From sequence record ON871820: 64,000 bases of DNA; one strand, 5' to 3'. Under the pieces are notes generated by a model. It was not told the DNA's origin and did no database searches. It saw only the letters and a program-made list of their open reading frames with translations. Of the stretch, positions 5,650 to 6,453 are shown piece by piece. This DNA is from Escherichia phage vB_Eco-B1.1. The first letter of the stretch is position 1; each line of letters opens with the position of its first letter. The translations under genes were made by a program, and so were the position numbers.

Positions 5650-5989
5650 AATTTTGGTTTTATGTATAGGATTAATTTCATTTTCTGCTTCTGCGTCAGC
5701 AGATACATCATATACTGAAATTAGAGAATATGTAAATCGCACTGCGGCAGATTATTGTGGGAAAAATAAAGCATGCCAAGCTGAATTTGCGCAGAAATTA
5801 ATATATGCGTATAAAGACGGAGAAAGAGATAAATCAAGCAGATACAAAAACGATACATTATTAAAACGATATGCTAAAAAGTGGAATACCTTAGAATGTT
5901 CAGTTGCGGAGGAGAAAGATAAAGCCGCTTGTCATTCAATGGTTGACCGTTTGGTAGATTCTTATAATCGAGGATTGAGTACTAAATGA
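5642..5989 (+). CDS. vs: Vs, valyl-tRNA synthetase modifier
   Basis: 115-aa ORF with signal-like N-terminus, position between regB and tk. Confidence 0.7.
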   Translation: MTKILVLCIGLISFSASASADTSYTEIREYVNRTAADYCGKNKACQAEFAQKLIYAYKDGERDKSSRYKNDTLLKRYAKKWNTLECSVAEEKDKAACHSMVDRLVDSYNRGLSTK

Positions 5990-6453
5990 TTGTAAAATAT
6001 ATCAAGGGCGATATTGTCGCCCTTTTCACTGAAGGTAAAAATATTGCGCATGGATGCAATTGTTTTCATACGATGAAAGCTGGAGTCGCAGGTCAATTAA
6101 CCAAAGCTTTCCCTAAAATTTTGGAAGCTGATAAATTACAGACTGAATGGGGTGATGTAACTAAACTTGGTTCTTACTCAGTCTATGAAAAATACTTTAG
6201 GACTCATAAAGCTTACTGCTTTAATCTTTATACTCAATTTCAACCAGGGCCAAATTTTGAATATTCCGCTTTAATGAATTGTATGTTAGAATTAAATGAG
6301 TTTGGTGAAAATAAACTGATTAAACCTACAATCTATATGCCTAGGATTGGTGCAGGCATAGGTAAAGGGAACTGGGATATTATTGAGGGGATTTTAGATA
6401 CATATTCCTCTAAATTAGAAATTGTGATTGTTGATTGGGAACCATTATTATGA
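5986..6453 (+). CDS. macro-domain protein (ADP-ribose binding/processing fold)
   Basis: Motifs GDIVALF..IAHGCNC..MKAGVAGQL and YMPRIGAGIGKGNW resemble macro-domain signatures. Confidence 0.6.
   Translation: MIVKYIKGDIVALFTEGKNIAHGCNCFHTMKAGVAGQLTKAFPKILEADKLQTEWGDVTKLGSYSVYEKYFRTHKAYCFNLYTQFQPGPNFEYSALMNCMLELNEFGENKLIKPTIYMPRIGAGIGKGNWDIIEGILDTYSSKLEIVIVDWEPLL

Follow-up and report, generated by a model that had tools for sequence, protein, structure and literature searches.

An ortholog of T4 tk.4 in a T-even Escherichia phage encodes a macrodomain with a predicted glutamine-type active site

Results

The tk.4 locus

In the 64,000-nucleotide stretch of Escherichia phage vB_Eco-B1.1 analysed here (sequence record ON871820; hereafter the window), the gene between vs and tk.3 encodes a small protein for which an initial annotation had proposed a macrodomain and a counter-defence role against host adenosine diphosphate (ADP)-ribosylation (Table 1). 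The window is a segment of a T-even (Tequatrovirus) genome, which over positions 5000-8000 shares 98.6% identity with T6 and with close relatives of T6. The protein is equal in length to T4 Tk.4 and identical to it at 152 of 155 residues (98%), it is 99% identical to T6 Tk.4, and the gene order vs-tk.4-tk.3 is kept in T4, T6 and T2. Based on this full-length high identity and on the position between vs and tk.3, we assign the gene to the Tk.4/AdfM orthologous group; judged by sequence, it is the ortholog of T4 and T2 tk.4, in a T6-type copy. At each end, tk.4 shares an ATGA overlap with its neighbour, as is usual for T4 early genes, which are translationally coupled in this way. The tk gene lies within 4 kb in 30 of 79 related IMG/VR loci.

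Table 1 Positions of tk.4, its motifs and its neighbours in the window
Feature	Position	Strand	Remarks
tk.4 / adfM coding sequence	5986..6453	+	155 amino acids, single macrodomain; carries the exact strings quoted in the initial annotation
H22-G23-C24-N25-C26 motif	6049..6063	+	G23, N25 and C26 invariant, H22 and C24 at least 95% conserved (n=60)
Phosphate-binding loop 1, M30-K31-A32-G33-V34-A35-G36	6073..6093	+	aligns with TARG1 MGAGIA and DarG MGKG
N80-L81-Y82-T83-Q84 motif	6223..6237	+	N80, Y82, T83 and Q84 invariant (n=60)
Phosphate-binding loop 2, P119-R-I-G-A-G-I-G-K-G-N-W130	6340..6375	+	P119, I121, G124 and W130 invariant; aligned to TARG1 PRIGCGLDRLQW
vs (valyl-tRNA synthetase modifier)	5642..5989	+	upstream neighbour; stop overlaps tk.4 start
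tk.3	6450..6662	+	downstream neighbour; start overlaps tk.4 stop
tk	7404..7985		further downstream of tk.4

Tk.4 is a macrodomain of the ALC1/TARG1-like class

Tk.4 reached 25 bits against the Pfam Macro family PF01661 (gathering cut-off 22; E 1.9e-5; profile positions 2-113 of 118) and matched PHROG 335 with an E value of 7.8e-65. A profile of 61 homologues matched the PDB entries of Bt_1257 (4e-18), TARG1 (6e-16), and Poa1p and SCO6735 (3e-14), as well as two DarG entries (6.5e-14 and 3e-11). The AlphaFold2 model of Tk.4, based on 60 homologues, has a mean predicted local distance difference test score (pLDDT) of 94.8 and a predicted template modelling score (pTM) of 0.90, and its top Foldseek matches were human TARG1/OARD1 and yeast Poa1p (template modelling scores of 0.75-0.81). 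In this model, Tk.4 is predicted to adopt the fold of the macro superfamily, a three-layer alpha/beta arrangement in which two Gly-rich loops border the ADP-ribose cleft. The nearest structures are TARG1, DarG, Poa1p and SCO6735/Bt_1257, and not MacroD, PARG or viral nsp3. Together, the Pfam, PHROG, PDB-profile and AlphaFold2 evidence identifies Tk.4 as a free-standing macrodomain of the ALC1/TARG1-like class. Thus, the macrodomain call of the initial annotation was borne out by both of the computational checks it had proposed, with PF01661 above its cut-off in the profile search and a macro fold that keeps both Gly-rich loops in the structure prediction. The family is widespread in phages, with a tblastn match in 2,727 phage records.

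An invariant glutamine stands at the position of the DarG/TARG1 lysine

Conservation was scored in an alignment of 60 homologues, with identity down to about 35%, in which G23, N25, C26, G33, A35, D49, N80, Y82, T83, Q84, P119, I121, G124 and W130 are invariant. For the assignment of active-site columns, we used a MAFFT alignment of 16 sequences, composed of Tk.4-family members, Bt_1257, SCO6735, TARG1, two DarG macrodomains and PhiKZ gp104, with comparison sequences taken from PDB alignments and the methods section of one paper. In this alignment, Asn25 of Tk.4 shares its column with N22 of DarG, N23 of PhiKZ gp104 (also named AdfM) and N27 of SCO6735, all of which have described functional roles (PMC13309987, PMC9411070). 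The column of Gln84 holds a Gln in Bt_1257 and Q85 in SCO6735, K84 in TARG1, K80 in DarG and the lysine of the PTK motif in PhiKZ gp104. The HMMER profile-to-TARG1 alignment sets YTQ opposite ITK and hence gives the same register. An hhalign comparison of the family profile with PhiKZ gp104 had put Q84 and the PTK lysine in adjacent columns, within a stretch aligned at low confidence; this register was rejected in favour of the mutually agreeing HMMER and MAFFT alignments. Gly126 of Tk.4 stands at the position of the catalytic Asp125 of TARG1 in both the profile alignment and the 16-sequence alignment.

A T6-type allele in phosphate-binding loop 1

Compared to T4 and T2, the window protein carries three substitutions, A15T, G31K and S32A. 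K31/A32 is common to the window and T6, whereas T4 and T2 have G31/S32; among the 60 homologues, position 31 is Gly in 52 and Lys in 4. Of the 15 nucleotide positions at which the gene differs from T4 tk.4, nine fall within 19 bases, nucleotides 87-105 of the gene (window 6072-6090), and result in G31K/S32A. This patch is present in T6, while T2 is identical to T4, and its sequence has the appearance of a short tract exchanged by recombination or conversion at a functional loop. Searches of IMG/VR with degenerate DNA patterns recovered K31/A32 in 1 contig and G31 in 8, too few for a frequency estimate.

The anti-DarT role of tk.4 is on record

The role of tk.4 against DarTG2 and its macrodomain annotation are both already on record and not new. 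The GenBank records of T4 and T6 name the gene tk.4 with the note 'contains A1pp phosphatase motif', and other records label it 'macro domain protein', 'phosphatase' or 'high-affinity ADP-ribose binding module protein'. In a HIDEN-SEQ preprint of 20 November 2025, transposon mutants of T4 were screened on E. coli that expressed DarTG2, and tk.4 alone emerged as a significant hit; its clean deletion sensitised T4 to DarTG2; the authors named the gene adfM, for anti-DarT factor Macrodomain, and remarked on the structural likeness to Mycobacterium tuberculosis DarG (bioRxiv 10.1101/2025.11.20.689424). The tk.4 result is in line with the previous observation that T4 without adfA and adfN retains full DarTG2 resistance (PMC11825919), which had led to the expectation of a further anti-DarT factor. 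A counter-defence against DarT-type ADP-ribosylation, as first suggested for the window gene, has therefore experimental support from the transposon screen and the clean deletion of the 98%-identical T4 ortholog, and the accompanying remark on the lack of such an assignment in T-even phages is outdated in view of the GenBank labels and the 2025 preprint. The protection was demonstrated for the T4 allele and may extend to the K31/A32 allele of the window. The gene 61.2/adfA is found at 48453-49076 of the window (98% identical to T4), so that AdfA and AdfM, two anti-DarT factors named in T4, are both encoded in it. The window also contains dmd (47658-47837).

As the initial annotation had noted, the same phage encodes the ADP-ribosyltransferases ModB (54245-54865) and ModA (54865-55464). 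Their presence would allow Tk.4 to act, as that annotation had also suggested, as a regulator and not in counter-defence, either by reversing ADP-ribosylation or RNAylation marks set by the phage's own Alt, ModA and ModB or by removing uracil-linked ADP-ribose from RNA, and TARG1-like hydrolases including SCO6735 do also act on Asp/Glu-ADP-ribosylated protein and on uracil-ADP-ribosylated RNA. The T4 Alt and Mod enzymes modify arginine, which is not a substrate of the TARG1 class. Since tk.4 was also reported to be conditionally needed only with DarTG2 and this role is otherwise unsupported, we regard it as very improbable.

Distant homologues lie beside Nampt-like genes

Distant Tk.4-like genes (31-37% identity) are immediate neighbours of Nampt-like genes in Acinetobacter phage TAC1 (L012 901-4474) and Vibrio phage ABurr (L013 3132-6138), in both of which they are also adjacent to a Prs-like gene. 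The same pairing with a Nampt-like gene was observed in the IMG/VR loci L057, L069, L071, L073, L076, L079 and L080, and a Nampt-like gene is present within 4 kb in 7 of the 79 related IMG/VR loci. This layout of a macrodomain gene with a Nampt-like, and in part a Prs-like, gene suggests a phage module for salvage or reconstitution of nicotinamide adenine dinucleotide (NAD+). A literature link between NARP1 and macrodomains was looked for, and no paper with both terms was found in the collection searched.

These neighbourhoods, together with the old 'A1pp phosphatase' label, suggest a possible main role of Tk.4 on small-molecule ADP-ribose, with the anti-DarT effect being secondary: Tk.4 could act as an ADP-ribose-1''-phosphate (Appr-1''-p) phosphatase or O-acetyl-ADP-ribose deacetylase similar to Poa1p, or degrade or recycle NAD-derived defence signals, Thoeris and CBASS being the systems named in the initial annotation. 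Such a role appears unlikely, because the T-even tk.4 has no NAD-salvage neighbours and nothing else in its context favours it, the DarTG2 phenotype is the sole tk.4 phenotype found, and the invariant Gln84 is of the type seen in the DNA-ADP-ribose hydrolase SCO6735, whereas Poa1p has a Ser.

Other features of the window

A promoter scan of 4400-8300 gave matches no more numerous than in shuffled controls. At the 5' end of the tk.4 coding sequence (codons 7-13; window 6004-6024) lies a perfect palindrome with an 8-bp stem, AAGGGCGA TATTG TCGCCCTT, which the scan flagged as resembling a terminator on the minus strand. For phage DalCa, the record lists a 'terminator' among the features under its tk.4 match, which may or may not be this palindrome. 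Upstream of regB, positions 1-4700 of the window have their best match in phage vB_EcoM_G8 (98.1%) and are unlike T6 in gene content; the annotations of vB_EcoM_G8 in the matching region include an internal virion protein, a lysozyme, a nudix hydrolase and a GrcA-like glycyl-radical cofactor. The internal-protein region of T-even phages is known to vary, and the difference from T6 is consistent with this variability.

Discussion

A proposed glutamine-type hydrolase model for T-even AdfM

We consider it probable that Tk.4/AdfM is an orphan macrodomain hydrolase that removes the ADP-ribose attached to thymidine by DarT2; orthology, fold and loop conservation were computed here, and from these we infer hydrolysis and its glutamine-type mechanism. 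AdfM would be made early in infection, within the translationally coupled gene string from regB over vs to tk. Host DarT2 would place ADP-ribose on thymidine of single-stranded DNA and thereby block replication, and AdfM, as an orphan 'antitoxin-like' enzyme, would hold the ADP-ribose in its cleft and hydrolyse the bond between ribose and N3 of thymine, releasing free ADP-ribose and restoring replicable DNA. Catalysis would be water-mediated as in SCO6735, with Gln84, fixed by Asn25, positioning the distal ribose, and would not use the lysine mechanism of DarG and TARG1.

SCO6735 clears the ADP-ribose that DarT has placed on thymidine in DNA more quickly than DarG or TARG1 do, and it rescues E. 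coli from DarT (PMC9411070). Its Q85A and Q85E variants lost all activity and N27S nearly all, and the authors proposed a water-mediated mechanism, with Gln85 positioning the distal ribose and Asn27 holding this Gln in place (PMC9411070). Because Q84 and N25 of Tk.4 match Q85 and N27 of SCO6735, Tk.4 has the active-site signature of a proven hydrolase of thymidine-linked ADP-ribose that works without a lysine, which removes the main objection to a hydrolase model.

Several points nevertheless weigh against this model. In the 16-sequence alignment, neither the catalytic Lys common to DarG and TARG1 nor the TARG1 Asp is present in Tk.4; the longer mobile loop that carries Lys89 is missing as well, so that the SCO6735 mechanism may not transfer. 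The K31/A32 allele replaces the loop-1 Gly kept by 52 of the 60 homologues, and the phage used for the published knockout, T4, carries G31/S32. A literature search found no biochemical test of Tk.4 against ADP-ribosylated DNA, and the preprint goes no further than to say that removal of DNA-linked ADP-ribose by the T4 enzyme 'seems likely' (bioRxiv 10.1101/2025.11.20.689424). Furthermore, protection alone is no proof of hydrolysis, since SCO6735 Q85A, DarG K80A and TARG1 K84A, although catalytically dead, continue to inhibit DarT by interaction in vitro (PMC9411070).

Together with the missing lysine, this last observation leads to an alternative in which Tk.4 protects without catalysis, by stoichiometric binding of DarT2 or of ADP-ribosylated DNA, as proposed for ICP1 AdfB, whose mode is thought to be direct interaction (PMC11481870). 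The invariance of N25, Q84 and both phosphate-binding loops over 60 diverse homologues fits an active site better than a toxin-specific surface, the 155 amino acids of Tk.4, compared to the 338 positions of the DarG model, do not include the C-terminal DarT-binding domain, and SCO6735, a very efficient enzyme, carries this Gln as well. We therefore judge a purely binding role to be improbable and favour the hydrolase model.

Two proteins named AdfM

The name AdfM was given independently to two non-orthologous proteins, the Gln-type Tk.4 of T4 and the Lys-type gp104 of PhiKZ, a clash in nomenclature that deserves notice. The latter is a free phage macrodomain that counters DarTG2 and removes DarT2-made ADP-ribose from DNA (Cell Rep 2026, PMC13309987). 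PhiKZ gp104 matches M. tuberculosis DarG with an E value of 9e-25, scores 133 bits on the PADLOC DarG model and has the PTK motif, whereas Tk.4 reaches an E value of 0.076 to the same DarG chain and 29 bits on the same model and has YTQ. By these measures, gp104 is a genuine DarG-like, Lys-type macrodomain, and similarity scores and motifs, rather than a phylogeny, indicate that the T-even and PhiKZ AdfMs are probably two separate recruitments. As the T-even protein has an invariant Gln in place of the DarG/TARG1 lysine, the two AdfMs are probably different kinds of enzyme, which bears on the classification of anti-DarT factors. The natural tk.4 alleles that differ inside the phosphate-binding loop could further refine such a classification.

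Beyond this, we tentatively put forward a broader scenario, which taken as a whole is possible but leans towards doubtful: T-even AdfM would represent, rather than a captured DarG, a separate, phage-wide lineage of Gln-type hydrolases marked by H-G-C-N-C and N-x-Y-T-Q and recruited against DarT2 independently of PhiKZ AdfM, K31/A32 would reflect allele tuning to DarT variants or substrates, and the distant members beside Nampt-like and, in two phages, Prs-like genes would feed ADP-ribose into NAD+ salvage or reconstitution.

Overall, a reading of sequence alone can recover a real counter-defence gene, and the useful remainder of our analysis is mechanistic, namely that in the T-even protein an invariant Gln, as in SCO6735, replaces the Lys of DarG and TARG1.

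Comparison with known macrodomains

Among known systems, T4 Tk.4/AdfM is alike in predicted fold, length and neighbours, and differs by three substitutions, two of them in a phosphate-binding loop. In contrast, Tk.4 is rejected as a DarG ortholog, as it has neither the catalytic Lys nor the C-terminal domain. Where the DarG2 macrodomains (Thermus aquaticus, 5M3E; M. tuberculosis, 5M3I) have Lys80, the lysine of the PTK motif in T. aquaticus, Tk.4 has the invariant Gln84 (n=60), and the C-terminal DarT-binding domain that is a feature of DarG is absent; on the NCBIfam DarG model NF048014, Tk.4 scores 24.3 bits against a cut-off of 250, with the macro part alone being matched (positions 2-146 of 338). 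With the Gln-type ALC1-like subclass of SCO6735 (Streptomyces coelicolor, PDB 5E3B) and Bt_1257 (Bacteroides thetaiotaomicron, 2FG1/2AFC), Tk.4 shares, as far as the alignments indicate, the Gln and its supporting Asn. The mobile loop of these two proteins, which carries Lys89 and exceeds that of DarG and TARG1 by about five residues, is short in Tk.4, as seen from six extra residues of Bt_1257 compared to the profile and from gap columns in the 16-sequence alignment. Given the missing insertion and the low identity (20-29%), the phage-borne Tk.4 is, by sequence comparison, no plain member of this subclass. Poa1p, an Appr-1''-p phosphatase, has a Ser at the Gln84 position. In TARG1/OARD1, the catalytic pair K84/D125 corresponds to Q84/G126 of Tk.4, and TARG1, too, strips ADP-ribose from thymidine in DNA.
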